Source: Planctomycetota bacterium (lineage in GTDB: Bacteria; Planctomycetota; GCA-002687715; CAIWVZ01). Taken from it: a DNA stretch of 64,000 nt. The notes beneath the pieces were generated by a model. That model saw only the letters and a program-made list of their open reading frames with translations, had not been told where the DNA came from and searched no databases. The DNA lies in the NCBI GenBank assembly GCA_044222185.1, contig JBGANV010000002.1:288001-352000 (forward strand), read 5' to 3'. Positions 35,824 through 64,000 of the stretch are shown here, in pieces. The position numbers and the translations under genes are program-made. Positions within the stretch are counted from its first letter, which is position 1. Each line of letters begins with the position of its first letter.

Positions 35824-38800
35824 ATGAAGACGACGTCCATCGCATGCACGGCACTGCTCGCCCTGGTCACCCTCGCGCCCACCTTCGGGCAGGGACCCCG
35901 GCCACTGACGCATGACGACTACGAGCAATGGAAGTCGTTGCGCGGCACGTCCTACAGCCTGGACGGCAAGTGGGTCGCCTACCAGATCGAGCCCCAGTGG
36001 GGTGATGGCGTACTCGAGATCCGCCAGACCGACGGCGACGTCGTCTATCACCACCCCCTCGGGTCCGGTGCTCGCTTCTCCAACGACGACCGCTACGTCG
36101 TCTTCACCATCAACAAGTCGAAGGTCGAGGAGCGCAAGAAGAAGATCGACGACCTCGTGAAGAAGGCCGAAGGCGCGGAGAAGAAGGAGGGGTCGACCGA
36201 GACCTCGAACGAGCCCGGTGGAGGCGGCGCGGCGCGGCCTGCGGGCGCACCGGCAGGGCTCGCGGGTCGCGGCCCGTTCGGCGGCGGCCGTCGCGGCGGC
36301 GCTGGCGGCCCCGGCGGTGCGCCTGGCGCACCAGCGGGCGATGAGGCGTCTCGCGATCGCGGCGACCTGGGAATCATGGACCTCTCGACCGGGAAGGTGG
36401 AGATCATCCCGAAGGTGAAGGGGTTCGCGCTCCCCGAAGAGTTCGCCGTCCTCGTCTATCACCTGGACAAGCCCGAGCCGCCGAAGGATGACGCGTCCGC
36501 CGACAGCCGGCCGGGCGCGGACAGCCGTCGTGCCGAGTCGAGGCCGGAGGAGGGTGCAAGCGCCGAGTCGCGCGGCCCCGAGTCGCGCCCCGAGGGCGGT
36601 CGCTTCGCCGGTGGGCGCCGGGGCGGCCGGCGCGGACCGGGCGCACCCGGCGGCGCGGGTCCCGGCACCGCGAGTGCTCCGACGAGTCGCCCCGAATCCC
36701 GCCCCGAAGATCCAATGGAGAAGAAGCGGCAGGACGGATCCGTGCTCGTGATCCGCGACCTCGCCACCGGCGTGGAGCGCAAATTCGAGGACGTCGTCAA
36801 CTACGGCCTCACACGCAAGGCCACGTGGCTTTGGTGGAACACCTCCGCCAAGAAGCCTGACGCGAAGAAGACCTACGGCCTCTTCGCCGTGAAGCTCACC
36901 GGTGGCGACGTGCGCACGCTCGTCGACGGCTTCGCGGACTTCGGCAACATGACGTCGGATCGCGAGGGGTCGGTTCTGGCGTTCACCAGCAACAAGAACG
37001 ACTTCGCCGCGGAGAAACCGCGGAGCGACATCTGGATCTGGAACTGCGACGATCGGCCGGCCGAGCGGATCGTCCATCCGGAAACCCCCGGCATGCCGAA
37101 GACGAAGGTCCCGGGCGGCGGGCTCGGCTTCTGCCGCGACGGCAGCGTTCTCGCGTTCTCCGTGCAGGATCTGCCGGAGCCGGACGCGACGCCGATCCTG
37201 CCGGACGAGAAAGTCGTCCTCGACATCTGGCACTGGAACGACGGGCAGTTGCAGACCGCCCAGGCGAAACGCACGGGACGCCGCAACAGCAACTGGACGG
37301 CCGTCTGGCATCGCGCCGAACGACGTCTGCAGGTGCTTGGTGACGCGACGGTCGAGAGCGTCCGCTTCCTCACGCGCGACGGATCGCGAGGCCTCGCGAC
37401 CGACGACACGCCCTACGAGAAGCTCTCGACCTGGGACACCCGCTATTCGGACGTCTACGTCGTCAACACGCTCGACGGGTCGCGGACGAAGGTCCTCGAG
37501 AAGCTCCGTGGCACGGTGAGCAACTCCCCCGAGGGCCGCTACCTCGTGTGGTTCGGGACCGACTACCACTGGTGGTCGCTGGACGTCGCAACGCTCCAGA
37601 AGCGCGATCTCACCGGCTCGCTGCCCGTGGCGTTCCAACAGACGGATGACGACCATCCCGCGGCCGATCCCGCGTGGGGGATCGCGGGATGGACCGAGCA
37701 CGACGCCGAGATCGTGTTGAACGACCAATTCGATCTTTGGCGCGTATCGCCGGCCACCGGCACCTCGGCCTGCGTCACGGATGGCTACGGCCGCGCCGAG
37801 ACGACGCGCCTGCGACTCGAGATCCTCGACCGCGAGCAGGAGCACCTCCCGACCGAGCTGCTGCTCTCCGCCGTGAACACCGAAACGATGGCCGAAGGCT
37901 ATTTCACCGACTCGCTGACGGAGCCGCGCAAGCCCCTCCGCCTCGTGAACGTCGACAAGAACTTCGGTGGACTCACCAAGCCGAAGAAGACGGATCGGCT
38001 GTTCTTCACGCTTTCCACCTTCGCCGACTTCCCCGACCTGTGGACCGCGCAACACGACTTCACGGGGATGAAGAAGCTGTCGGCTGCGAACCCTCAGCAG
38101 GCGAACTACCGCTGGGGCAAGGCCGAGCTCGTGCGATGGATCAACGGCGACGGCAAGACGCTGAAGGGCGTGCTCGTCAAGCCTGACGGATTCGATCCCG
38201 CGAAGAAGTACCCGATGATGGTCTACTTCTACGAGCGGATGTCCCAGAGCCTGCACGAGTACGTCGCGCCTTCGCCGGGCACGTCGCCGATCGCGTCGTA
38301 CTACGTCAGCAACGGCTATCTCTGGTTCATGCCCGACATCGTCTACGAGGTGGGCTACCCCGGTGAATCGTGCGTGAAATGTGTCGTCTCCGGAGTGGAG
38401 TCGCTCATCGCCAAAGGGTTCGTGGACGAGAAGGCCATCGGCGCGGCAGGACACAGCTGGGGCGGATACCAGACGGCATTCCTCGTCACGCGCACGAACA
38501 TCTTCGCGGCCGTCGAATCCGGGGCCCCAGTCTCCAACATGATCTCGGCCTATGGCGGGATCCGCTACGAGACGGGCATCTCGCGTCAGTTCCAATACGA
38601 GAAGGATCAATCGCGCATCGGCGGAACGCCGTGGCAGTACCCGATGCGCTATTGGGAGAACTCGCCGATCTTCTTCGCGGACAAGGTGAAGACTCCCGTG
38701 CTGATCCTCCACAACGACGCGGATGGTGCGGTGCCGTGGACGAATGGCATCGAGTACTTCACAGCCCTGCGTCGACTCGAGAAGGAAGCCTACTTGTTCA

Positions 38801-50877: not shown

Positions 50878-51717
50878 TCACCCAGGCTTGGTCTCAGTTG
50901 GGATCGCGGCGAGACGGGTGAACGTTCCCGCCTCGTCGACGCTGCCGAACGCGGGCGGTGGGCCCTCGAGCAAGGCGACCCAGTCGGCGGACTCGATCCG
51001 GACGACGTCGATCGACTGGCCGACCTTCGCGGCGAACTCCGCGGTGCCCTGCGCGTCGCGATGGGTGACCGCCACCAAGCGGCGCGTGCGACTCGAGAAG
51101 TCGAGCTCGCGGGCTGCGGCGATGCAGTGCTCACACCCGGGATCGAACACGAACACGTAGGCGTTCGACACTCCCGCGATCCGCACACGATGTTCGACAC
51201 CCGTCGGCGGTGCGCCTGACGCGCAGACCCACGCGACGACGGCGACCACGATGGCACCCGCGGCACTCGTGTGGACGAGCCCGGAGCGGCTCCACTCGCT
51301 GCCGGTCGACAGTCGATGCCAGCGCGCGACGAGCGCGACCGCCAGCAACTCCAACGTCGCGACGACTCCGAGCCATTTCGGCACCGCGGCCCACGCGCCG
51401 AAGCATCCACAACTCGAGCCTCGTGCCCACATCACGAGATGGTGAACGCCCAGGCCCGCAGCGAGGCCGATGGCGCCGCGTGCTCCGACACGGTTTCGGA
51501 CGAACAGCGCGAAGACGCAGGCCAGGGCGTCGACCGCCACGACGATCCCGCCCAGGAGGCGTGCGGGCACGTCGATCCCGTACCCGCTGCGAATCGCATC
51601 GTGAATCTCGGCAGCGGCGACGTGTGGAGCTGCAACCTTGGCGACGAGCGCCACGGCGAAGATCGCGGCCCCGACGAGGCCCGCTGCGGCGATGGCCCTG
51701 GCTCCGTTGATCGTCAC
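50878..51717 (-). CDS. MauE/DoxX-like membrane protein fused to a thioredoxin-like CxxC domain
   Basis: Hydrophobic helices with the MauE-type SCGCFG motif, then FVFDPGCEHC. GTG start overlaps the upstream stop (GTGA). Confidence 0.75.
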   Translation of the reverse strand: MTINGARAIAAAGLVGAAIFAVALVAKVAAPHVAAAEIHDAIRSGYGIDVPARLLGGIVVAVDALACVFALFVRNRVGARGAIGLAAGLGVHHLVMWARGSSCGCFGAWAAVPKWLGVVATLELLAVALVARWHRLSTGSEWSRSGLVHTSAAGAIVVAVVAWVCASGAPPTGVEHRVRIAGVSNAYVFVFDPGCEHCIAAARELDFSSRTRRLVAVTHRDAQGTAEFAAKVGQSIDVVRIESADWVALLEGPPPAFGSVDEAGTFTRLAAIPTETKPG

Positions 51718-52871
51718 GCCGCCGCTCCAGCAGCCTGCCGGCGGCGACGCGCGACGACTCGGGGAACCGCGAACGCGCCCGCGCAGAGAGCGACAACCCC
51801 GAGGGCCCACGCCGCCATGGGGATGGCGTGCGTGTCGCGTCCGGCGCCGAGCTTGGGAGCGCAGGCCGCCAGTCGCTCGATCAGTTCGTCGCCGGAGGTG
51901 GTCCCGTCCGTCGCATAGGACGTCCTGCCCGTTCGACCGTCCAGGATCTTGGCGACGGCACCGAGCTCACGCGCCGGTTCGATGGCGAGCGTCGTGCCCG
52001 CGGGCAGCGGCGCGATGCTCGCCACGTCGACCTTCGACCGCAGCATCCCGAGCCGCGTCCGAAACGAGGCCGCCGTCGGCATCACGACGGGACCGAAGGT
52101 GCGGAAGTCCCCGAATTCGACGACGCGCGCCACTCCACCCTGGATGCCGCCGAGGATCGGAACCACGGGAAAGTCCGGCAGGAGGAGGTCGTTCGGCATG
52201 TTCTCTCCGCCCTCCTGAGGTGCCTTGCAGACGACCGGAGTCTCGAGGAACTCGACGGTCGTGAGTCGCAGTCCTCCGTCGATCCGCTCGAAGTGGCAGC
52301 GCCATCCGAGCAGGCCGGTGACGGCTCGACCGGCCATCGCGGCCTTCACGACCTCCTCGTGGAGTCCGAACAGGACGATCAGTCCCGTGGGCGTTCGCTC
52401 GGCGCTGACGATGGGCGTGCTCTGCACCTGGTCGATCCAGGGCGAGCGCCCGAACGGGCGGAGGTACGCCATCACGGGTGACGTGGACATCTCCACGAAC
52501 TCCTCGTGCGGACGGATGAGCGCGTCGCAGTAGCCTTCACGGCGAGTGTTGAAGATCTGGACGCCGTCGCGCCACGTCGTCACCTGCAGCGGGGTCGATC
52601 CATCCTGCAACGCGAGCTTGGCCCACCGCGCTGCCCCGGTGATCGGATTCCCCTGAACCTCCCACCGGCCGACCTCGTGGACGTTCGAGCCTCCCGCGGC
52701 CGCGGCTTCGCAGCGGTCACGCCATCCGACGTTCCAGGATGGCGCGAGATCGGCCTTCGCGGCCGCGAGCAGGAGAAGCCTCGCCTGCGCGACCGGCAGC
52801 GATTGCGCCGTGGCGCCGGCAGACAGCAGTACGGCCGTGATGACGATCCGAACGTTGTGTTGTCTCGACAT
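51714..52871 (-). CDS. Exported hypothetical protein with C-terminal TM anchor
   Basis: Signal peptide (…LLSAGATA-Q). C-terminal hydrophobic helix followed by RRRR. Tightly coupled to its neighbours. Confidence 0.7.
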   Translation of the reverse strand: MSRQHNVRIVITAVLLSAGATAQSLPVAQARLLLLAAAKADLAPSWNVGWRDRCEAAAAGGSNVHEVGRWEVQGNPITGAARWAKLALQDGSTPLQVTTWRDGVQIFNTRREGYCDALIRPHEEFVEMSTSPVMAYLRPFGRSPWIDQVQSTPIVSAERTPTGLIVLFGLHEEVVKAAMAGRAVTGLLGWRCHFERIDGGLRLTTVEFLETPVVCKAPQEGGENMPNDLLLPDFPVVPILGGIQGGVARVVEFGDFRTFGPVVMPTAASFRTRLGMLRSKVDVASIAPLPAGTTLAIEPARELGAVAKILDGRTGRTSYATDGTTSGDELIERLAACAPKLGAGRDTHAIPMAAWALGVVALCAGAFAVPRVVARRRRQAAGAAA

Positions 52872-52885
52872 GACACTCTCCCCGC

Positions 52886-54520
52886 TCACTGCGGTTCCGC
52901 GACGAATGGGACGGCGAACCGTGTCGGCGAACTGGCCTTCACCTTCACGTCGAAATGGATCTCGCCGACCCCCGACTTCGCCACCCATGCGTCAGGGGCA
53001 GCGATCGAGTACTTCCTGGTCCTCCCCGTGACGTCGTTCGCGTTCACGACGACCCCCTGGCCATCGGCCGATACCGCGACGATCTCGGCCCCCTCGGGAA
53101 CGTCCACCGTGAACTCGCCCGACCAGCCGTGGTCGACCGTTCTCGCGAGGCGAACCACGTCCGGCGTCACGCCGAGTGGCTGAACGACGTTCCAGCGCAC
53201 GACGGTGTCGAGGCTCGTCTGCCCGACGTATGCCGTGATCGCCGCCGACCCAGGTCCAAGTCCGAACGGCTTCACCACGACCTCGGCCATCGTCGCCGTC
53301 GGAAGTTCGGCGACGGGGATTTCCGTCCTTCCATCCGTTCGGATGACCAGCGTCCCGGCACGCTCGACGACCCACGAGATCGGTCCGATCGTCGCCGACG
53401 GCCCCGCCAGGGCGCGTGCACCGTCCGTGAAATGGAGCAGGACCTTCCGCGACGACTCGACGCCAGGCGGGATGTCTCCGAGGTCGATGCTGCCTGCGAG
53501 TTCGAGGCCCTGCACGCGGGCGGCCGGCAGATGAACGGTCACCGTCGTGAGCTTCCCGTCGTCCTGCCGGAAGAACACCAGGATCGTCCGGGGCGTGTTC
53601 GCGACCTCGACATCGAGCGTGCAGACGCGTCGCTCGCCTGGTTCGAGCGGCTTGTCCGTGTGAAAGACGTAGGACGCGCACGTGCAGGACGCGAGCACGC
53701 GGTCGAACTTCACCGGCGACGGGGACTCGTTGACGACCGTGATGTCGTACTTCTGCCGTCCGATGAGCTTGGTGTCGACGGTGATGTCGAGGCCTGGCTC
53801 GAAGCGGAGACCACCGGTGTGTCCCGGCCGGCAGCCACCGAGTGCGACCGTCACCGCGGCGACCGCTGCCACGACTGCCGGACGAAGGCGGAGGTGGCGG
53901 AACTGCCACGCGAGTCCGAGGGCTCCCATCGCGAGGAGGGCAAGCGAGATCCCGCGGCCCCAGGTCATGCGTGGTGGGACTTCGCACAGCAGCATGGCGG
54001 GCAGCAGGTCACCTTTGAACTTCGGCCAGTACGATCCACCGGCGAACATCGGCGGATCGAAGTAGTCGACGCGGTCTCCCCCCGTTCCTCGAATCACGAG
54101 GAAGTGGGCCGGGTTGTCTCCACCGGCGGGGTGTCGGCGGGCGACGATCGCGATCTGATCCGCGGATGGAGCCTCGATGGGCCGCGCCGTCGCGCGAACT
54201 CCGTGCTGGCCCAGAACGCGCTGGATGTCGGCCATCGAGCAAAGGCCCGAAGCGCCGATCCCGAGTTCCTTCTTCAACTCGTCGAAGCCTGGAGAGGCAA
54301 CGTTCAGCAAGGACAGCGCGACGCCGGCGGAATAGGCGCCGCAGTCCTGCTCGAGAACGGCGCCGCGCGGGGTGGCGGTCTCCTGGCCCAAGCCAGCGAC
54401 GACGACTAGCGCGAGAGCGAGCGCCGACCGGAGCGAGATGCACGCGAGCCATCCGTCCTCTCGCATGGCGCGGCGTGCACGAGCAATCTGAGGGGTCGAT
54501 GTTGAGAACATGGGGTTCAC
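52886..54520 (-). CDS. Exported C39-family cysteine peptidase domain fused to DUF1573/Ig-like domains
   Basis: Signal-like N-terminus. EQDCG (Cys), SMADI, AHFLVI (His), YFDPP (Asp). Two hydrophobic segments ending LGGC, then VVNES..ASCTCA..LEPGE (DUF1573-like). Start 54520, 54511 or 54466. Confidence 0.75.
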   Translation of the reverse strand: MNPMFSTSTPQIARARRAMREDGWLACISLRSALALALVVVAGLGQETATPRGAVLEQDCGAYSAGVALSLLNVASPGFDELKKELGIGASGLCSMADIQRVLGQHGVRATARPIEAPSADQIAIVARRHPAGGDNPAHFLVIRGTGGDRVDYFDPPMFAGGSYWPKFKGDLLPAMLLCEVPPRMTWGRGISLALLAMGALGLAWQFRHLRLRPAVVAAVAAVTVALGGCRPGHTGGLRFEPGLDITVDTKLIGRQKYDITVVNESPSPVKFDRVLASCTCASYVFHTDKPLEPGERRVCTLDVEVANTPRTILVFFRQDDGKLTTVTVHLPAARVQGLELAGSIDLGDIPPGVESSRKVLLHFTDGARALAGPSATIGPISWVVERAGTLVIRTDGRTEIPVAELPTATMAEVVVKPFGLGPGSAAITAYVGQTSLDTVVRWNVVQPLGVTPDVVRLARTVDHGWSGEFTVDVPEGAEIVAVSADGQGVVVNANDVTGRTRKYSIAAPDAWVAKSGVGEIHFDVKVKASSPTRFAVPFVAEPQ

Positions 54521-54557
54521 CTCGCATGAGTCCCGAAGAGCACCGCGTCCACCCGTC

Positions 54558-56930
54558 TCAGGGCGACGTCTGGAGCACGCAGCGCACCGCCGCGGGCCAC
54601 GTCGCCTGGATGGTTCGTGCCGCCGGCATCAGCCAGCGCGACGCGAGATCGAGCGATCGAACGGGCCATCGGCCGATGCGGTCAACGAGAAGGCGGCACT
54701 GCGCAGTCGCCGTTACACCTTCGGGGGCGAGATCGTGAGTGTCGCGAGCCGGCACGGCCCGGAGGCCCGACGGCCCGCTCCTCACCTCGCGAACGTCGAG
54801 CGTCGGACCGCCGACGCAGACGAGGACCGGCATCACGGGATGGCAGCCCAGCAGGAGCGAGTCGCCCGTTCGGAGGACGGGCGCCAACATCACCCCGCAA
54901 TCGAGGTCGTAGGCCGCCAAGACCAGCTCGTGCTCGAGGAGCGGTCCGTCGAGCTGGACCCGCTGTTGCGCGCTGCTTTCCGGAAGTTGCCAATCGCCAC
55001 GCGTGGGTAGCTCAGAGCCTGGAACGAAGAGCGCGGTGGAACCGCAGCGCAGGCGAAGTCCCTGGCCCCCGCATCGGCGGACTCGCAAGGTCCCCGATGG
55101 ATCCGTCCGGACGACCGCCTCGTGAAACGCGACCGCAGGTACGACCGACACGACGACGTCGCAGGATGCGAGGGGCGCTCCACCGTGGCCCCTGATGGTG
55201 ATCTCGAGAGCCGGGCCCGCATCTCCGCCGACCCGGCCCAGGTCGACGACGGCGTCCGTCTCGACGTTCACCTTGCGAGACCAGAGGCTCCCATCGTCGA
55301 AGCGCGCCGCGACGACGTACTCACCCGGCGTGAGAGCGTCGAAGCGGAACGCCGTTCGGGGCTCCACACGGCGCTCCCTGTGCATCGTCGACCACGCATC
55401 CGCGGTGGGAATCACCGCGACGACACCGGACGCCCCGGCAACTCCGCAGACGCTGCCCGCACCGACGTCGTCGAGCGAGATCTGCGCCGTCTCTCCGTCT
55501 CGGACGACGAGTCGGCGGGAGACGCCCAGGCCATCCACGACCAGGGTGTAGGTGCCCGGCGGAAGCCAGTATTCGCGCGCATTCCCATCGATGCGATTCG
55601 CCGCTGCGACGGCCCCATACCTCGTTTCCAGGAGGGCGAGGCGGCGTGACTCCAATCGTGACGGGTCCGCGCTCGTGACGCGAACGCGCCCGCCGAAGTC
55701 ACCGAGCTCGATGGCGCGCGGCGCAGCGGACGCGAGCGCACCGACCTGGAAGGGTCGACTCACGCCTTGGAATCCAAAGAATCGGACGGGATCCGTGGGA
55801 TCGGGCCGGCGGCCGAGCACGACCGTGACGAGGCCATCGCCGTCCGTCCGCGCCTTCACCAGCTCCGCGCCGATCGACGCCTGGACGATTCCGTGGGAGA
55901 TCGACTGCGCCCCCGTGACGAGTCGAGCGCGCAGCGCTTCGATCGCGCCGAATTCCAGGAATGCGACGCGACCCTCGTCGGCGTCCGTCGGTGTCGCGTT
56001 CGCGCGGATCACGGCAGCGCCGTTCATGCGGACGGCACCCGTGATCGTCCGAGTCTCGGGGTCCTGGACCTCGAGCATTCCCATCCCGAACCTCAGGTCG
56101 ACGGGGCCGCGGCCCACGGACACCGAATCGGCTTGGATGTCGACATCGGTGAGCGTCGTGTGCTCGAAGCTCGCCAAGGCTGGAACGCTGACCGTCACGG
56201 CAAGGACGCGCGTCGCCTGGATTCGGATCAGCAGGTCCGTCTCACCGGGCGTCACACGCTCGCGGACGCGCACGATCCCATCCCGAGTCGCCTCGACGAA
56301 TGCGGAATCGAACGAACGGACGCCCTCGTACCGGAACGCGCCCTGCGCGTCCGCGGTCGTTGGATACATCCGGTCGGACGTGACGAGCGCGATCCGGGCC
56401 CCACCCGCGGGAGCACCGGCGGCGTCGACGACTCGGCCGGCGACGGACGTCGACCCCTTCAGCCCGACGACGACGCGATTCTGCCCGCAGTCGAGCGACA
56501 GATTCCGTTCCGCATCGGCGTAGCGGTGATGACGCACGACGAGCCGCACGCAATCGTCGACGCGCTCGACGTCGAGTCGCGCCCGGCCGGCTCCGTCGGT
56601 GAGCGCGATCGGTGGCGCGGATGGGGGATTCGAGAAGCTCGCAACGACGGTGGCTCCTTCGATCGGGTCGAGGGTCGATTCGTCGCGGACGACGACGTCG
56701 ATCGACCCGCTACCGGGGCCAGCGAACGGTCGCGGGCGCACGGATGCCGCGGTCGGGTGTCTCCACGTGTCCGTCGCGCTCGCAAGGTCGCCGAGCGCAG
56801 CGGACGGAGACGGGAGGTCGGTCCGCGTCGGCGCCGACCCGGTGTCGTCCATCACGGCGGCCGTCGCCAGGAGCGTTGCAACGAGTGCCGCGGCCGGGAG
56901 CCACGTCACCGCGCGAGGTCGTTTCGTCAT
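54558..56930 (-). CDS. Exported carboxypeptidase-regulatory-like repeat protein
   Basis: GGAGG RBS, N-terminal hydrophobic segment, VRDE..PIEGATV..TDGAG and VAGRVVDAAGAPAGGARI motifs. Confidence 0.7.
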   Translation of the reverse strand: MTKRPRAVTWLPAAALVATLLATAAVMDDTGSAPTRTDLPSPSAALGDLASATDTWRHPTAASVRPRPFAGPGSGSIDVVVRDESTLDPIEGATVVASFSNPPSAPPIALTDGAGRARLDVERVDDCVRLVVRHHRYADAERNLSLDCGQNRVVVGLKGSTSVAGRVVDAAGAPAGGARIALVTSDRMYPTTADAQGAFRYEGVRSFDSAFVEATRDGIVRVRERVTPGETDLLIRIQATRVLAVTVSVPALASFEHTTLTDVDIQADSVSVGRGPVDLRFGMGMLEVQDPETRTITGAVRMNGAAVIRANATPTDADEGRVAFLEFGAIEALRARLVTGAQSISHGIVQASIGAELVKARTDGDGLVTVVLGRRPDPTDPVRFFGFQGVSRPFQVGALASAAPRAIELGDFGGRVRVTSADPSRLESRRLALLETRYGAVAAANRIDGNAREYWLPPGTYTLVVDGLGVSRRLVVRDGETAQISLDDVGAGSVCGVAGASGVVAVIPTADAWSTMHRERRVEPRTAFRFDALTPGEYVVAARFDDGSLWSRKVNVETDAVVDLGRVGGDAGPALEITIRGHGGAPLASCDVVVSVVPAVAFHEAVVRTDPSGTLRVRRCGGQGLRLRCGSTALFVPGSELPTRGDWQLPESSAQQRVQLDGPLLEHELVLAAYDLDCGVMLAPVLRTGDSLLLGCHPVMPVLVCVGGPTLDVREVRSGPSGLRAVPARDTHDLAPEGVTATAQCRLLVDRIGRWPVRSLDLASRWLMPAARTIQATWPAAVRCVLQTSP

Positions 56931-57030
56931 GTTCCCCTCCTGGGCCGCGGGGAGCGACGCGTCGCGGGTCACCGGCGCATCGCCCACCGCCGACGTCGAG
57001 GACGGACGCCCCGATCGAGCCGTCACGAGT

Positions 57031-57549
57031 TCAGCCGCAGCTGAAGGCCGCACACGGCATGGTCGCGTTCGGGACGGGAACGCACGCCGCGCCGATGCAG
57101 AGGTGCGTCGTCTTGCCGGGTGCGCACGTGACTCCGGAGTCCGTCGCGGTGATCGTGCAGCTCCCCTGCCCGGCCGTTCCGCAGTCCAGGATCGTCGCGT
57201 TCGGGTCACACGAGCTCGGCTCGTTCGAGGTGGTGCAGAACTTCACGTACTTCTCGTTGTTGCAACCACTCGATGGACACGTCTGCTGCGTGTAGGGGCA
57301 CGGTCCGCACGAACGCGTGTTCTTGTTGCAGTACGAGCCGCGCTGCATCCAGGACGTGCAGCTCTCGTTGCCTGGCCAGCACTGCTTGTACACGAGCGTC
57401 AAGCCGCCTCCGGCGACCTGCCCGCCGATGATCCCGCCGAGCGACAGACCGTCCTTCGAATCCGGGCCGCTCTCCGGTGCGCCATTCATCAGGCCAAGAA
57501 CGCCCGAAATGACCAACGCCGCACTCGCGACGAACTTGATGGAATTCAT
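57031..57549 (-). CDS. Secreted cysteine-rich small protein (putative precursor peptide, 172 aa, 16 Cys)
   Basis: GGAGG RBS, signal peptide MNSIKFVASAALVISGVLGLMNG, Gly-rich segment ending QVAGGG, then a domain with 16 cysteines. Confidence 0.8.
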   Translation of the reverse strand: MNSIKFVASAALVISGVLGLMNGAPESGPDSKDGLSLGGIIGGQVAGGGLTLVYKQCWPGNESCTSWMQRGSYCNKNTRSCGPCPYTQQTCPSSGCNNEKYVKFCTTSNEPSSCDPNATILDCGTAGQGSCTITATDSGVTCAPGKTTHLCIGAACVPVPNATMPCAAFSCG

Positions 57550-57981
57550 GTGATCCTCCGCACGTGAGCCGCCGGACTGAATGGATGGACGGCGAGCGGG
57601 CGTCCCGCCATGCACGTTGGCTCAGCGGCGGCGTTGGCGGCCCGTCGATGCACGCACGTCCCGACACCGAGGCCCACGCCGACCATCGGCGTCTGTGCTC
57701 GGGTCGTCTGTAGAGGCGTCGAAGCACGTCGGGCGTTACTGCGGAACCATCGTCGGTGTCTCGAATCCTCGACACGGCCGCCCGGCCGCGCCAAAGGGAT
57801 GCTGAGCTCGATCCCACGGTCCGAAGAGTCGCGATCGAGTGGCCCGACGCGCAGTTGCGCGTCGCGATCGGTCACCCGGCGAGAGATCGTCCGCGTGGTC
57901 GACACCGTGGTTCGGCGAGCTCCGTCCGAGCCGGCTCGAAGCGGGCGCAGTGCCGGCGCCGGCCGCGCAGCGCAACGCTCC

Positions 57982-58908
57982 CTATTTCGAGAACTTGTTG
58001 GCCTTGCGATTGCCGAGTCGAAGCTTGTCCTCGAGATGCGAGCGAAGCGCGGCGTAGAAGTCTCGCAGGAAGCGATCGACGTCGACCTTGCGCGGGTCGC
58101 CATCCCAGCGAATGCGCTGCTGGATGCGCTCGGCGACGGCTCGGCGCGTCACCTGGGCGTCGACGGCATCGTCACGGCGCAGGACCTGTTCGAGCACCTG
58201 AAGCTCGTACTCGCCGTAGATCGCCAGCTGCGGGGGCGTGAACTCGTATCGCGCCGCGGTCGCCGCCTTCCGTGTCGCCCGACTCAGGTCCGCAAGCAAC
58301 GTCGCCTTCGGAGCGAGGACCACGCGCGTCCCACCCACCAGATCGCCGATGCGGAGCCGGTCCCGGTTGAAGATCGGCAAGCCCATGAAGATGAGGAGCC
58401 AGACCAGGGCGGCGAATCGCAACCACCCTGGCACCCCGGGGAAGAACGTGCTCGACCCGAACGTGAGAGCGAGCGGGAGGACCACCTCCACGTTTCGAAC
58501 GAGGTTGCGGGCGAAGATCGCCTCCGACAGCAGTTGGCCGCCGCGCGCATCGATCACCCGCAGACCGAGCATGCGCTTGCCCGGCGTCCGGCCCTGCCAG
58601 CGGATCTCGAACCACGGAAAGTAGGCGTTGATCAACAGGAACACGCCCAGGGTTGCGACGGTCATTCCCACCTCGCCCGAGGCCATCGCCGACGCCACCG
58701 CGAGCGTCACCACGAGAACGAGCGCGAGAACGATGATCACGGCATCCACGAGGAACGCCGCCGCCCGCTCGCCCGCGGACGCCAGAGTCACGCAGATCGG
58801 TACACCCTCGGGCGTGATGATCTCGCGCATTCGCAACGCGCGTGCGAATTCACCGACGCTCGCCCCGGGGATCAAGTGCGGCCCGTGGCCGGCGGCGACG
58901 GGCCTCAC
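57982..58908 (-). CDS. RDD family membrane protein
   Basis: TPEGV..LASAGERAAAFLVD, GRTPGKRMLGLRVID and RIGDLVGGT motifs. GTG start overlaps the upstream stop. Confidence 0.88.
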   Translation of the reverse strand: MRPVAAGHGPHLIPGASVGEFARALRMREIITPEGVPICVTLASAGERAAAFLVDAVIIVLALVLVVTLAVASAMASGEVGMTVATLGVFLLINAYFPWFEIRWQGRTPGKRMLGLRVIDARGGQLLSEAIFARNLVRNVEVVLPLALTFGSSTFFPGVPGWLRFAALVWLLIFMGLPIFNRDRLRIGDLVGGTRVVLAPKATLLADLSRATRKAATAARYEFTPPQLAIYGEYELQVLEQVLRRDDAVDAQVTRRAVAERIQQRIRWDGDPRKVDVDRFLRDFYAALRSHLEDKLRLGNRKANKFSK

Positions 58909-59894
58909 GCGGCCCTCCGCATGGGCCGTACGCCCAGGTAGAGGTACCACGCACAGGCGAACGCGAGCGCGACGGTCCATCGCACGGACGTGCTGGTGAC
59001 GGCCCCGCGAAACACGCCCTCCATCACGCCTGCGATCAGGAACATGACCATGGCTCCCGTCGCCACGCGGCCGGCTTCACGGCCGGCGACGAGCAGATTG
59101 TCGACCCGACTCATCCGGCCTGGAAACACCAACGCCTGACCGAGGACGAGTCCCGCGCCGCCACACAGGATGATCGCCAGGATCTCCGTGACCCCGTGAG
59201 GCAAAACCCATCCCCAGAACTCCACGCTCAGGCCGCGCGACATGAAGAGTGCGCCAAACGCCCCGAGCATGAGCCCATTCGTGAACATCAGGTACAGCGT
59301 GATGATTCCCCCCGCGAAGCCCAGCGCGAACGACCAGATCCCGATCTGCGCGTTGTGCGTGAAGAGCATGGTGGCGAATCCGCCGCTCGCCGACGCCTGG
59401 AAGAGCGTCGACCGCAGCGTCTCGGTCGACGCCGTCGGATCGCGACCCGAGGCGAGGTCGGCATCCACGAACGAGTAGAACCACTCGGGATCGCGTGCCG
59501 TCAGCACCCAACTCGTCAACCCACCGATGAGGAAGAGGCTCCAGGCCAGAAGCATGTGGTTTCGGTAGCGCCGAACGGCGGAGGGGAATCCCCACCGGAC
59601 GAACTCGCCCACGACGGCGAACGGATGGCGGCGAGTTCCATACACGCAGAAGTATGCCCGAAGCGTGAGCGCTTCCAGGTACTCGACCAGGTTGCGGTCC
59701 AGGGAGATCGCGCGCGCGAGGCTGAGGGACGACACGGCCTGACGGTAGAGGCGCGGCAGGTCGGAGAGATCCTCCGGTGCGAGGCCGCGGACGTTCCGCG
59801 AGCGCTCCGCGCGTTGCACGAGCTCTTCCAGCCGTTGCCAGGACGCCTGACGCTCGTGTCGGAATTGGAAGCTCTTCAGTCCCGCGTCGTCCAT
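58905..59894 (-). CDS. Stage II sporulation protein M (DUF95)-like membrane protein
   Basis: WQRLE..LYR, LFTHN, NGLMLG, LPHGVTE and IAGVMEG motifs. Standard member of MoxR operons. Confidence 0.88.
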   Translation of the reverse strand: MDDAGLKSFQFRHERQASWQRLEELVQRAERSRNVRGLAPEDLSDLPRLYRQAVSSLSLARAISLDRNLVEYLEALTLRAYFCVYGTRRHPFAVVGEFVRWGFPSAVRRYRNHMLLAWSLFLIGGLTSWVLTARDPEWFYSFVDADLASGRDPTASTETLRSTLFQASASGGFATMLFTHNAQIGIWSFALGFAGGIITLYLMFTNGLMLGAFGALFMSRGLSVEFWGWVLPHGVTEILAIILCGGAGLVLGQALVFPGRMSRVDNLLVAGREAGRVATGAMVMFLIAGVMEGVFRGAVTSTSVRWTVALAFACAWYLYLGVRPMRRAA

Positions 59895-61204
59895 CAGATC
59901 CGCTCCCGCCGCTTGATGTCGAGATAGGTCGAGAGGAGCTGCGCCGAGAGCTCGCCCGGGGCGCACTCGAGGCACATGGCGCCCGCGCGTCGGAGCCGCG
60001 TGAAGACGACCTCGCGCTCGCGGAGGAAGTCGCCGGCGACGGCGGCCCTGTGAACGTCCTCCATTGCCTGGAACGGCGCCTGGACGAGGGCAGTGAGCGC
60101 CGGATCACGCATGGACACGAAGAGTACGAGATGCCGCGTGGCGAGGTGTCCCACGGTTTCGAGCATGAGGCGCGCAGCCACGTCATCCACGAAGTCGGTC
60201 AACAAGACGACGAGCGACCGCCGCCGGAGCCGCGTACCCAGGACCGAGATCGCCAGCGTGTAATTCGATTCGTCCGTCGAGTACGCGAGCTCGCTCGACC
60301 TCTGCCGCAGAAGCCCGAAGCTCTTCGCGCCAGAGACGGGCTCGACCCAGGACCCTGGACGCGCGCCGAACGAATACAGTCCGATGCGATCGCCGCTCCG
60401 CAGCCCGCCCCAGGCGAGGAGGAGTCCGGCGGTGATCGCGTGGTCGAGCCGAGGCACACCGTTCAGGGGCTCGGCCATGAGGTGCCCCGTGTCGATGGCG
60501 ATCACGACCTGCTGATCGCGCTCGGCACGGAACTCCTGGCTGAGGAGCTTGCGGTGACGCGCCGAGGCCTTCCAGCTTATGGCTCGGTGATCGAGGCCTG
60601 GCACGTAATCCCGGAGCGAGTCGAACTCCGATCCTTCCCCGACGAACCGCATGCGCTTCGGCCCGAACCAGGCTTCGCGATTGCGCGCCACCGTGATCGC
60701 CGCCGTGTGCACGGGTTTCAGGTTCGGAACCACGATGACCTCGTGCGCGGTGTTCACCAGTTTGCGGCGTTCGAAGAGGCCGAACGGGCCTTGCCAGCGC
60801 AGCCACACTCGCTCGATCCGGCCGACACCCCGACGGCGCGCCATCAGCGGAACGGAAGCAAGGGCACGCCCGTCCGCACCCGTCGTCACGACGACGCCCG
60901 CGATCGGAGCGAAGAGCTCGTTGACCTCGCAGAGCATGGCCAGCCGGAGCCGCGAGCGCGACCCGGCGATGATGGTGACGTGGCACGCTCCGGCGGAACC
61001 GATCTCCAACGACTTCGGCGCCTGCGACTCGACGATCACGCGAGCGGCCGGCACCGCGAGCGTCAGGTCGATGACCATGAGGGCGACGATCAGCGCGGTC
61101 ACGGCAACCGCGGCGAGCCACAGCCCCGGCGCCACGAGCGCGGGAAGCAACGCCACGGGCAGCGCGGCGAGGAGGAGAAGGACGGCTCGGATCGTCGGGA
61201 CCAT
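59894..61204 (-). CDS. DUF58 domain protein
   Basis: GSEFDSLRDYVPG, ISWKASAR, IDTGHLM, GDRIGL and LVVLLTD motifs. Confidence 0.9.
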   Translation of the reverse strand: MVPTIRAVLLLLAALPVALLPALVAPGLWLAAVAVTALIVALMVIDLTLAVPAARVIVESQAPKSLEIGSAGACHVTIIAGSRSRLRLAMLCEVNELFAPIAGVVVTTGADGRALASVPLMARRRGVGRIERVWLRWQGPFGLFERRKLVNTAHEVIVVPNLKPVHTAAITVARNREAWFGPKRMRFVGEGSEFDSLRDYVPGLDHRAISWKASARHRKLLSQEFRAERDQQVVIAIDTGHLMAEPLNGVPRLDHAITAGLLLAWGGLRSGDRIGLYSFGARPGSWVEPVSGAKSFGLLRQRSSELAYSTDESNYTLAISVLGTRLRRRSLVVLLTDFVDDVAARLMLETVGHLATRHLVLFVSMRDPALTALVQAPFQAMEDVHRAAVAGDFLREREVVFTRLRRAGAMCLECAPGELSAQLLSTYLDIKRRERI

Positions 61205-61210
61205 GCTGTT

Positions 61211-62167
61211 TCAGCGTGGAGCGGGAACTTCCGCCAGCACCTGCCCGATCACCGCCTCCGGCGCGATGCCGTCGATCTCGGCACTGGGCGACATCAGGAT
61301 GCGGTGGCGCAACGCCGGCAGCGCCACGCGCTTCACGTCGTCAGGTACGACGAACTCGCGCCCGTCGAGGGCTGCCGCCGCGCGACTCGCCGTCGTCAAC
61401 ATGTTCGTCGATCGCGGCGACGCCCCGCAGAGCAGCGAGCTGTTCTGCCGCGTCGCTCGCACGATGTCGACGGCGTAGTCGATGATGGGATCGGCCAGCG
61501 TGATGTTCGCCAGAGCCGCGCGGGCCTCCGAGAGCGCCGGGCCGTCGGCCACGGGCGTCACGCCGAACGCGTGCGGATCCGCGAGCACCGTTCGGCTTCC
61601 GTGCAGGCGGACCATGGCGCGCTCCTCGTCCCGCGACGGATACCCAACCGGGATCTTGAACATGAAGCGGTCGAGCTGAGCTTCGGGGAGCGGATAGGTG
61701 CCCTCCTGTTCGATGGGGTTCTGCGTGGCGATGACGAGGAACCACGCGCCGAGCGGATGCGTCTTTCCGTCGATCGACACCGCCTGCTCCTGCATCGCCT
61801 GGAGGAGCGCCGCCTGCGTCTTCGGCGGCGTACGGTTGATCTCGTCTGCGAGGAGGAGGTCCGTGAAGATCGGCCCTTTCACCAAGGAGAAGGTGTTCGA
61901 CTGGAAGTTGAACAGGTTCGTGCCGAGGACGTCGCCCGGCATGAGGTCCGGGGTGAACTGGATTCGATTGAACGCCAGTGCGAGTGCCGATGCGAACGAA
62001 CGCGCGAGCAGCGTCTTCGCCGTTCCCGGCACGCCTTCCAGGAGGACGTGGCCGTTGCACAACAACGCCATCATGAAGAGATCGATGGCGTCGTCGTGAC
62101 CGACGATCACCTTGCGGACCTCCGCGCGCAGGCGTTCACCGAGGGCTTGGATCTCGACGGGGGTCAT
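61211..62167 (-). CDS. moxR: MoxR family AAA+ ATPase
   Basis: [62 protein letters not shown] and GASPR. Confidence 0.93.
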
Positions 62168-63486
62168 AAGTCTCCTGATGAGGATTGGACCGCGCCGGCG
62201 TCGCGAGGCAGGGCGGGTGTTCGTGACGTGGTGATGCGGCCTTTGTGTGCAAGTCCCCGGGGATCGAACTCCCGGGCCCACTGCTGGAGGCGGCGTGCGA
62301 GTTCGAGGAAGGTGTCGGGCGACGCCTTGCGGTCACGGCGCGCGGCGCCGATCTCTCCCGTCAACTTCGCGAAGTCGTCGGTCGTACCACGGGCCATCCC
62401 CAGTCGGGCGAGCGCCGGAACCAGAGTCTTGCGGTCGCCACGCAGATCGGCCGGCACCTGGCGAGCCGCCTCGTGCGTCACCTGATCGAGGATCCGGCGC
62501 AGGGACTCACCGTGGTGGCCCGCATGCGCGAGCAGTGACGCGGTGTTCTCGATGAGGAATGCCTTGCCCACCTCGAAGGGCGGAGCGAGCGGCGCAGGCG
62601 ATCCGAATCGGCGAGCTCCGGCCCACAACGCGAGCACCGCCGCGAGGAGGAACTGCACCGTGGCGACCACCAGGGGAAACTCGAAGAGCGTTCGGAAGAA
62701 CGACGTGGGCCGCACGAAGCCATGGATCGTCTCGTCGATGACGATGGGAGACCACCGTGTGGACCGGACCCGGTCGATGATCTTCAACGCCAGCGCGGCG
62801 TTGTCCCCGGCGTGCAGGCCATGGTTCTCGAAGATGTCGGGATCGGAGACGACGACGAGATGGGTTCCATCCACCTCGGTCTCGCCCACGAGGATCTGGC
62901 CGGCATTCGAGAGGATCGGTTTCAACGCGCCGGACCGGAGGAGTTGCGGCTGGGTCAACGTCGGGCGGGGGAAATCACCGGTCCATGCGTCGACCATCAC
63001 CGGCGCCGGCACCACGGTGACGCCGCGAACGAACGGCACGAGCACGCCCTCGATCGCCCGGATCGGTATGGGCGTGACCTTCTCCACCTCGGTCTCGTTG
63101 GTGGGGCTCGGGAATCCCCGCCATTTCGGAAGCACGAGCAGGACCTCGCTCGCTTCCCGCACGATCGCTGCGAGAGCACTCGCGTGAGTCGCGCCACCCG
63201 AAGTCACGTTCGGCTCCAGGACCACGACGGCGCCGTCCTCGCCGGCGCGCTCCACCGATCTGGCACGGCTCGTGATCACCGGGAGTTTCATCTCGCGCAG
63301 CAGCTCGACGAACGCGTGATGCCCGATGGCGGAGCGGCTGTACCCATTGGCCGCGACGGCCTGTTCGGCGTTCTCCGACCTGGCCAGGGTCCCAGCGGCG
63401 AAAGCGCAAACGAGGGAGACCACTCCCGACGTCACGAGGATCCCGGTCATACGGCGGGAGAAGATCGGTGGGTCTGAGTCGGTCAC
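62164..63486 (-). CDS. DUF4350-like membrane protein of the MoxR operon
   Basis: N-terminal [18 protein letters not shown]...DNA, IDETIHG, TM then RRFG. Overlaps the moxR start. Confidence 0.75.
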
Positions 63487-64000
63487 GCGGCCGCCGCTCC
63501 GAGCCGCGTGAATGCGTCGCGGCAGAACTCGAAATCCCGGGATCCCAGTGGATCGCGAGCGAAGACCGCGCGCTCAGTCCCCTGAACGAGCACCCGCAAC
63601 GGCGCCCGCATCTCCTCGGGGAGCTTGGCGGTGCGCAACACCTCCCGACTGGTCGAGGCCGTGGGAAGCTCGGTGCCCGTCTTCCGCACGACGAGATCCA
63701 ACGCGCGTAGCAGCAAGGCATGTATCGCTTCACCGAAACGTCCCGCCCGTGCCAATGCTTCGGCGTCCGGCACGTCCGACCCGGTCGACGCAGTCTCCGG
63801 CGGTTCGACGGGCTCGATGCGCGCCACGTTCGGCGGCGGCTCCGAGTCCGCGGCCGGGCGCTTCCATCCCCTCGCTGCGAGGACGAGTGCGACGACGACG
63901 ATGACGACGAAGGCAACGGCGGCGATCGTCAGGAATGCGCTCGCCGCCGTTCCGATCCCGCGCAATCGGTTCCGTACCGGTTCACGGGGTTCATCCGACG
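63483..64000 (-). CDS. DUF4129-like protein (5' end beyond window)
   Basis: Frame is open to the window edge. TM helix, AEALARAGRFGEAIHAL and TSRE motifs. Lies upstream of the DUF4350-like gene. Confidence 0.7.
   Translation of the reverse strand, partial: SDEPREPVRNRLRGIGTAASAFLTIAAVAFVVIVVVALVLAARGWKRPAADSEPPPNVARIEPVEPPETASTGSDVPDAEALARAGRFGEAIHALLLRALDLVVRKTGTELPTASTSREVLRTAKLPEEMRAPLRVLVQGTERAVFARDPLGSRDFEFCRDAFTRLGAAAA

Follow-up and report, generated by a model that had tools for sequence, protein, structure and literature searches.

In textbook accounts, double-glycine leaders and C39 peptidases act together in cytoplasmic peptide export coupled to ATP-binding cassette (ABC) transporters. 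How, then, might a protein be matured that carries such a leader behind a Sec-type hydrophobic N-terminus and ahead of a cysteine-rich core? The question is raised by g1, a gene for a precursor (P0001) of 172 amino acids in a 64,000-nucleotide stretch of DNA from a Planctomycetota bacterium (assembly GCA_044222185.1, contig JBGANV010000002.1, positions 288,001 to 352,000 of the forward strand; genome G000), referred to here as the window. The gene is the first of five head-to-tail genes (g1 to g5) at 50878-57549 on the minus strand, among them a candidate C39-type peptidase (g3) and a MauE-like membrane protein (g5). With a probability of roughly 0.55, we propose that P0001 is made as a pre-pro-protein and that its maturation takes place outside the cytoplasm. 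It would be exported by Sec through its N-terminal hydrophobic segment, which may be cut by signal peptidase or kept as a temporary membrane tether. The MauE module of the cluster, a DsbB-like CxC oxidase with a CxxC domain, would oxidise the 16 cysteines to form up to 8 disulfides. The membrane-anchored g3 would then remove a short propeptide, most likely ending at I40-I41-G42-G43, on the periplasmic side (the outer face of the membrane), to release a disulfide-rich protein of about 13 kDa without the involvement of an ABC exporter. The sequences show the gene structure, the conservation of the motif, the synteny, the C39 fold of g3 with its catalytic residues (by modelling and alignment) and the CxC of MauE. 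We infer the export, the topology, the disulfides, the cleavage site and the pairing of g3 with g1 as enzyme and substrate, and our most plausible guess for the mature product is a secreted antagonistic (bacteriocin-like) protein or an envelope protein. The parts of the precursor and its gene are as follows.

57031..57549, minus strand: g1, precursor P0001, 172 amino acids plus stop (open reading frame, translation, GC content at third codon positions 0.86)
57555..57559, minus strand: GGAGG ribosome-binding site of g1, 5 nucleotides to the ATG (direct sequence reading)
57481..57549, minus strand: residues 1-23, Sec-type N-terminal hydrophobic segment (K5, uncharged 6-20; hydropathy)
57421..57480, minus strand: residues 24-43, putative pro-segment APESGPDSKDGLSLGGIIGG, up to and including the conserved double-glycine motif (alignment, register table)
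57421..57432, minus strand: I40-I41-G42-G43, conserved GG pair, likeliest cleavage site, after G43 (alignment)
57406..57417, minus strand: V45-A46-G47-G48, cleavage site proposed originally, without conservation in relatives
57034..57420, minus strand: residues 44-172, core of 129 amino acids, 13.3 kDa, 16 cysteines (composition, cysteine positions)

g1 is a genuine gene with a conserved family. Its codon-position GC contents (0.48/0.60/0.86) follow the coding pattern typical of the surrounding DNA of 68% GC, and a near-identical public protein, P0002, shares its start methionine. The N-terminus reads MNSIK and is followed by 15 uncharged hydrophobic residues (6-20) with a mean Kyte-Doolittle value of 2.29; the term signal peptide is used here for lysine 5 as n-region together with the hydropathy of residues 6-20. 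The protein continues after this segment as APESGPDSKDGLSLGGIIGGQVAGGGLTLVYKQ, and the stretch behind the hydrophobic N-terminus is APESGPDSKDGLSLGGIIGGQVAGGG. A hydrophobic N-terminal segment is present in 8/8 compared sequences (mean Kyte-Doolittle 2.1-2.6); by eye, five relatives have an alanine at -1 of a plausible signal-peptidase site, and P0001 has no clear A-x-A site. All 16 cysteines lie between residues 57 and 171, the C-terminus is CAAFSCG, and threonine, serine and asparagine make up 36 of the 129 residues from Q44 onward. The signal, the glycine-rich segment, the 16-cysteine core, the CAAFSCG end and the GGAGG site, all named in the original prediction, are present in the sequence. 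Its tripartite scheme of signal, double-glycine segment and cysteine core also holds as a layout, one that recurs in relatives and in unrelated proteins beside like peptidase genes, while the processing itself is something we infer. A prepilin signal, a lipobox and a C-terminal sorting tag were considered for P0001 and rejected, the motifs being absent from the sequence.

P0001 belongs to a rare family. Searches of the protein and its core against Pfam, NCBIfam and the ESM Atlas gave no family match, the sole Pfam/NCBIfam row being Disaggr_repeat at the level of noise (E 0.027, 14.6 bits against a cut-off of 33.9). It had been held that a core belonging to a known non-processed domain family would speak against processing; no match to such a family was found, and the proposal therefore survives on that count. 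Among 1.84 billion representative proteins, phmmer returned three matches at E<=0.001, namely a 99%-identical copy of P0001 itself, P0003 (35% identity) and P0004 (32%), and a word-indexed search recovered only the 99%-identical copy. A scan of metagenome contigs, in which 155 pattern matches were examined, contained zero relatives. The only clear homologue among 61 related genomes lies in G013 (E 1.6e-19, locus L011), and a profile of the 16-cysteine family, built from six members, was found in 3/401 genomes of the phylum (G000, G013 and G304), a count to be read with the fact that all three had supplied members of the profile and that 8 first-look candidates were scored per genome. Fifteen cysteine columns are invariant in the six-sequence alignment and are kept by the relatives P0006/P0003, P0004 and P0009. 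No paralogue of P0001 was found in its own genome, where two further matches were weak (E 0.0096 and 0.18) and none of 34 small cysteine-rich open reading frames had the P0001 layout. An AlphaFold2 model of P0001 was computed from a 6-row alignment and reached a predicted local distance difference test score (pLDDT) of 31, at which neither the fold nor a disulfide pattern can be read. Four contigs with the precursor from sludge and bioreactor metagenomes were compared, and one of them, from sludge, carries a population variant that differs from P0001 solely at E26A and K32I, both in the pro-segment (window 57454-57475); the one nucleotide change in its core leaves the protein unchanged. The confinement of both substitutions to the pro-segment is consistent with a loosely constrained spacer, in what is a small sample. 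Such DNA contigs were the only listed sources of the precursor, with no RNA sequencing runs among them.

Where the propeptide would end is indicated by the relatives. In the first alignment, L37 and G42 are invariant within a conserved element L-G-G-I-I-G-G (37-43). The element has the form L-x-x-I-I-G-G and, with two more residues in front, L-S/x-L-G-G-I-I-G-G; its pair I-I-G-G (40-43) aligns with VIGG, LRGG, IEGG, ISGG and LQGA. At the conserved pair (a slash marks its end) the register reads DGLSLGGIIGG/Q in G000, KLDQVIGG/D in both G013 and P0003, DLSAITGFGG/D in P0004, GLRHLRGG/D in G304, SPLALIEGG/ACC and ALLTQDETAKISGG/ACG in two precursors of G237 (on contigs C70 and C113) and, with GA as the pair, PLTYSEADALQGA/A in G322. 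The known cleavage motif is reported to be GG or GA (PMC10233263), and in the LahT150 co-crystal the leader residues -4, -7 and -12 are described as occupying hydrophobic pockets of the peptidase (PMC6363468). Counted from G43, P0001 has isoleucine at -4, leucine at -7 and lysine, which is not hydrophobic, at -12. In the precursors from C113 and G322, -4 and -12 are hydrophobic and -7 is threonine or alanine; their leaders, L-T-Q-D-E-T-A-K-I-S-G-G and L-T-Y-S-E-A-D-A-L-Q-G-A, are near-textbook leaders on two unrelated cores. The original prediction had instead placed the cut at VAGG/G (45-48). It was right that V45 and L37 fall at -4 and -12 when counted from G48, which matches the canonical spacing, and the tandem double-glycine signals of microcin PDI are reported to be cut successively (PMC10233263), so a second cut here would be conceivable. 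Against this site stand the absence of any VAGG counterpart in P0006/P0003, P0004 and P0009, whose residues past the conserved GG are acidic or unrelated, and the position of G42, which would occupy -7 in that register; the conserved element runs from L37 to G42 and ends at G43. A leader ending at V45-A46-G47-G48, cut there as the sole or first site, is thus improbable, and cleavage is most likely after G43.

A double glycine behind a signal segment may, of course, be nothing more than a flexible linker in an ordinary Sec-secreted disulfide-rich protein, in which case the substrate of g3 would be a different one (an envelope component, g2 or g4), or g3 would bind without proteolysis. This explanation gains from the background frequency of the bare motif: among 836 putative signal-bearing open reading frames of the same genome, considered over the 35 residues behind the hydrophobic core, G-[GA] occurs in 374 (44.7%), against 7/7 precursor lineages. 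The longer motifs speak the other way. [LIVMF]-x-G-[GA] is present in 6/7 lineages and in 101/836 (12.1%) of the background, and [LIVMFA]-x-x-[LIVMF]-x-G-[GA] in 5/7 and 45/836 (5.4%), so that a hydrophobic -4/-7 motif directly before the cysteine core is found in 5-6 of 7 lineages against a background of 5-12%, figures that overstate independence because four of the seven lineages are mutually homologous. By position, the -4 residue is hydrophobic in 6/7 lineages, -7 is leucine or alanine in 6/7 and -12 is leucine or valine in 4/7; the neighbour precursor genes had been picked by their position and cysteine content, without use of the GG motif. The occurrence of near-consensus GG/GA leaders on two unrelated cores is a further argument for a leader, and we consider the linker explanation rather unlikely.

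The maturation scheme also depends on the identity and location of the candidate enzyme, whose features are these.

52886..54520, minus strand: g3, 544 amino acids, with a signal/transmembrane segment, a C39-fold domain, two hydrophobic segments and a DUF1573-like C-terminal region
53966..54385, minus strand: predicted C39-type peptidase domain of g3, residues 46-185, Cys60/His139/Asp155 (Foldseek, hhalign)

An AlphaFold2 model of g3 residues 19-200 has a pLDDT of about 90 through the domain. Compared with the PDB by Foldseek, it best matches the peptidase domains of PCAT1, LahT150 with bound leader, and ComA (E 3.5e-6 to 5e-4, probability 1.00, target template modelling score 0.63-0.71), with a further match to the C39-like domain 3zua (full range E 3.5e-6 to 8e-4). 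When four exported copies were compared by hhalign with three N-terminal domains of peptidase-containing ABC transporters (PCATs), the probability was 95.4% (E 1.8e-8), and CG was paired with CG, HFVV with HFVV and DP with DP; the catalytic residues in g3 are accordingly Cys60, His139 and Asp155. Two subfamily members from G237 exceed the PF03412 cut-off of 22 bits (32.6 and 37.6), and the g3 domain itself hits, at E 6.4e-4, the peptidase domain of an ordinary ABC exporter from G133. The ESM-Atlas neighbours of g3 are C39 clusters, taken as a lead only, and a word-indexed search with the N-terminal domain found only an identical g3 copy. Predicted fold, profile comparison, relatives and ESM-Atlas neighbours thus agree in pointing to a C39 peptidase. 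The G133 gene (L021 6768-8963, minus strand), from a low-GC member of the phylum sample, is a canonical peptidase-containing ABC exporter beside which lie another ABC gene and a gene for an HlyD-like adaptor; it served as the reference for canonical C39 motifs.

No ABC domain is present in g3, so that its peptidase domain is not the head of an ABC exporter. The G000 protein starts with an Arg-rich N-terminus, on which follow one hydrophobic segment, the peptidase domain, a second hydrophobic segment, an RHLRLR loop, a third hydrophobic segment and the DUF1573-like region; by the positive-inside rule, this order would place the peptidase outside the cytoplasm, and the DUF1573-like region with it. 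A signal/transmembrane segment likewise precedes the peptidase domain in the copies of G304, G237 (two loci) and G322, whose starts are ordinary signal-like segments. Were P0001 a canonical cytoplasmic double-glycine peptide, its hydrophobic N-terminus would not be a Sec signal and its peptidase-containing ABC transporter would be encoded elsewhere, which is the usual handling of such leaders in the systems described (PMC10233263, PMC6363468). Yet PF03412 has 0 matches at E<=1 in the genome and the A2 profile recovers only g3; the classical export route is unlikely because no canonical C39/PCAT gene is detectable in a genome that is 93.8% complete. Moreover, the 15-residue uncharged hydrophobic segment stands ahead of the motif in all eight compared sequences, and the peptidase domain of the cluster sits behind a signal/transmembrane segment. 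This cytoplasmic route is barely credible.

The association of exported C39 domains with small cysteine-rich precursors extends beyond the relatives of P0001. A profile of the exported subfamily, searched over 401 sampled genomes of the phylum, gave matches at E<=0.01 in 9; the exported type is present in 5 of these. At 6/6 exported-C39 loci an adjacent small gene combines a signal, a G-G/G-A motif and a cysteine-rich product. Such a constant neighbour speaks against the linker explanation. Three of the cores (G237 on C70 and C113, and G322) are undetected by the 16-cysteine family profile. Proteins sharing the leader and varying in the core, foreseen in the original prediction as paralogues, are thus found twice in G237 and once in G322, and not in the genome of P0001. 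The weaker profile matches comprise two PCAT-like loci without a signal segment in G142, and others in G232, G173 and G035. G237 harbours at least two cassettes (L020, on C70, and L034, on C113) with unrelated cysteine-rich cores (137 and about 148 amino acids). A fragment of a further, third C39-like gene abuts a contig end (L020 2-466), and L034 has its C39 and DUF1573 parts in different reading frames.

If the cysteines of such precursors are oxidised outside the cytoplasm, an oxidase would be expected close by, and the last gene of the cluster is a candidate.

50878..51810, minus strand: g5, 310 amino acids, MauE-like membrane domain (C134-G-C136) and C-terminal domain (C226-E-H-C229) (PF07291)

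The PF07291 score of g5 is 23.8 bits, below the cut-off of 27, and its homologues in G304 and G013 score 36.8 and 21.2. The CxC motif is kept in g5 and both homologues (3/3), and CxxC, behind a hydrophobic strand, in two of the three (G000 and G013). MauE proteins are reported to substitute for DsbB in Escherichia coli by way of a CXC active site (bioRxiv 10.64898/2026.03.05.709764). A second and stronger MauE gene (83.4 bits) lies elsewhere in the same genome, on contig C8 at 113904-114293 (plus strand), and because of it g5 looks dedicated to the cluster; the C8 gene is possibly the general disulfide oxidase of the organism. With 16 cysteines in 129 residues, the core could alternatively be a periplasmic thiol-based metal-binding protein of metallothionein-like character whose cysteines are kept reduced. 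The conservation of a MauE oxidase module in the cluster speaks against reduced cysteines, their spacing (gaps of 3-11 residues, one CxxC, CxC clusters absent) does not favour metal binding, and an even, invariant cysteine count suits a disulfide framework. A metal-binding role is very improbable.

Several observations weigh against the proposed maturation by Sec export, MauE oxidation and cleavage by g3. The homology among four of the seven lineages has been mentioned. The leader of P0001 is itself a poor match, its Gly-rich -12 to -5 segment being KDGLSLGG, and P0004 has glycine at -4; P0001 contains three GG pairs, an ambiguity by which the true cleavage site therefore cannot be fixed from sequence. 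The assignment of g3 is indirect in that PF03412 and PF13529 gave no match to it in the window and the exported-subfamily profile found none among PDB sequences, where the sole row for g3, that profile and g5 together was a chance match to chymotrypsin inhibitor 2 (E 0.46). The canonical glutamine six residues before the catalytic cysteine, present in the PCAT copies of L021, L028 and L032, is missing in all exported copies (alanine in G000; absent also from G304, G237 and G322), and the Asp position of the G322 copy is leucine. The periplasmic location of the g3 catalytic domain is predicted from hydropathy and charge only, and the thioredoxin-like nature of the g5 C-terminal domain, for which zero family or PDB matches were found, is suggested by its CxxC and sequence context. 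Finally, the g3 homologue of G013 starts inside the domain, without the signal and the cysteine-bearing half (L011 12575-13720, plus strand), and that half was not found elsewhere in G013 with the query used. The g2 homologue ahead of it is about 140 amino acids shorter and contains a run of N; the truncation may be a deletion across the g2 end and g3 start or a fault of assembly, and the peptidase may be dispensable in G013.

Part of this evidence counts in favour of the linker explanation as well: the degenerate P0001 leader with its non-hydrophobic -12, the missing glutamine and, in G322, the missing Asp, and a genome that seemingly retains the precursor and the cluster without the cysteine half of the peptidase. 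The true substrate of FapD, an exported peptidase discussed below, is likewise unsettled in the account given of it (PMC5557850). On the other side, cysteine and histidine are retained in all full-length copies. A predicted complex between the g3 peptidase domain and residues 22-62 of P0001 scored 0.01, which counts neither for nor against the pairing. A bolder extension of the scheme can be put forward tentatively: an undescribed, ABC-independent double-glycine maturation line on the outer side of the cytoplasmic membrane in planctomycete-like bacteria, in which the precursor would be exported by Sec, held at the membrane, folded by a dedicated MauE-thioredoxin fusion into a disulfide-knotted miniprotein of unseen fold and released by an anchored C39 peptidase at a classical GG leader behind the signal, the interchangeable cores representing a new class of secreted antagonistic or signalling proteins.

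The remaining genes of the cluster are two, neither with an evident role in these steps.

54558..56930, minus strand: g2, about 790 amino acids, N-terminal hydrophobic segment and CarboxypepD_reg domains (PF13620, 64.6 bits against a cut-off of 32.3)
51714..52874, minus strand: g4, about 386 amino acids, unknown family, start uncertain (52874 or 52988)

g2 has a transmembrane-like segment at residues 11-27, a syntenic homologue in L011 and large proteins in the same position in L019 and L033. g4, for which there were zero Pfam or NCBIfam matches, combines an N-terminal signal-like segment with a C-terminal transmembrane anchor (residues 350-366) and an Arg-rich tail; L011 has a homologue of it, and alignment adds others in L019, L034 and L020 (two in the last). 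Membrane segments are thus present in all four partner proteins (g2-g5), which fits assembly at the membrane. Two other genomes share the gene order of the cluster, and one more shares it in part. In L011 of G013, tblastn matches the five proteins in unchanged order (E 2e-13 to 2e-48); in G304 (L019) the order is precursor, large protein, g3-like, g4-like and MauE; and in G322 (L033) it is precursor, large protein, C39-like, DUF1573-like and g4-like, followed by the contig end. At its far end the cluster meets a convergent aldehyde dehydrogenase gene, and a 432-bp gap separates g1 from an upstream RDD-family gene, which bears out the earlier placement of g1 as the first gene of a same-strand cluster. 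A scan for promoters and terminators and a fold of the g1-g2 spacer gave nothing above shuffled controls, and no signs of a genomic island were found in the window, where the GC content is flat (0.66-0.71) and tRNA genes number zero.

The locus can be compared with three known systems. PCATs and related ABC-transporter maturation and secretion (AMS) systems (PCAT1, LahT, ComA; class II bacteriocins, microcins) likewise have G-G/G-A with hydrophobic residues at -4/-7 before the cargo (and at -12 in the relatives of P0001), the same peptidase fold with Cys/His/Asp, and the precursor gene first in the cluster. A thiol-oxidoreductase accessory is also found in pediocin-type operons. Unlike those systems, the leader here stands behind a Sec-type hydrophobic segment and is not an N-terminal cytoplasmic leader; the peptidase is carried on transmembrane segments with a DUF1573-like region, behind a signal/transmembrane segment and without ABC fusion; the canonical glutamine is absent; the cargo has 129 residues and 16 cysteines; and PF03412 does not score the window protein. 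Of these, the position of the leader and the lack of an ABC fusion depart from features that define the class.

By analogy, the nearest precedent is FapD of the Pseudomonas Fap functional-amyloid system, described as a periplasmic and catalytically required C39 peptidase for Fap secretion (PMC5557850); its authors call the target unclear and the peptidase class uncharacterised. FapD resembles the proposed g3 in being an exported cysteine peptidase of the C39 family; both would work independently of an ABC transporter on proteins that Sec exports and the same operon encodes. g3 differs in its membrane anchor and its link to a DUF1573-like region, and the cluster around it in a disulfide-rich cargo and a MauE gene. 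Pfam and NCBIfam scans detected no outer-membrane channel or amyloid among the five cluster genes, although no search was aimed at Fap models. A parallel for the oxidation step is the maturation of the disulfide-rich small subunit of methylamine dehydrogenase by MauE and MauD, in which a CxC membrane protein also occurs beside a small, very cysteine-rich exported protein and a thioredoxin-like partner is expected; here, however, the putative partner is fused to MauE, there are no other mau genes, and the Pfam score of g5 is below its cut-off. No description of a signal, double-glycine leader and cysteine-rich protein together with an anchored C39 peptidase and MauE was found in the literature, in a search whose scope left out subscription journals and supplements.

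Should the proposal hold, a leader/C39 pair would have moved to the periplasmic side and become coupled to Sec export and a dedicated MauE oxidase. Exported C39 peptidases would gain defined, testable candidate substrates together with their cleavage sites, and the MauE disulfide pathway proposed recently would gain a natural substrate. The system would also provide orphan disulfide-rich small proteins with a removable tag, which may be of interest for antimicrobial discovery and for the secretion of disulfide-rich proteins. Were the Gly-rich segment unprocessed, g1 would encode an ordinary orphan secreted protein.

Some further genes were observed around the cluster and elsewhere in the genome. 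Upstream of g1, outside the conserved cassette, the window carries RDD-family, SpoIIM-like, DUF58/VWA, MoxR AAA+ and DUF4350 genes and one small gene at 57982-63965 (minus strand). Two exported-looking proteins with 12 cysteines each and similar Gly/Pro/Ser-rich cores are encoded on contig C1 of G000 at 2105943-2106554 and 806048-806803 (both minus strand), and are unrelated to P0001 by search. On contig C16 of the same genome, at 36275-36793 (plus strand), a small open reading frame of 172 codons from stop to stop starts MRFKTKDLL and has 13 closely spaced cysteines, a helical-looking C-terminal half and no signal-like start; it might encode the precursor of a modified peptide.

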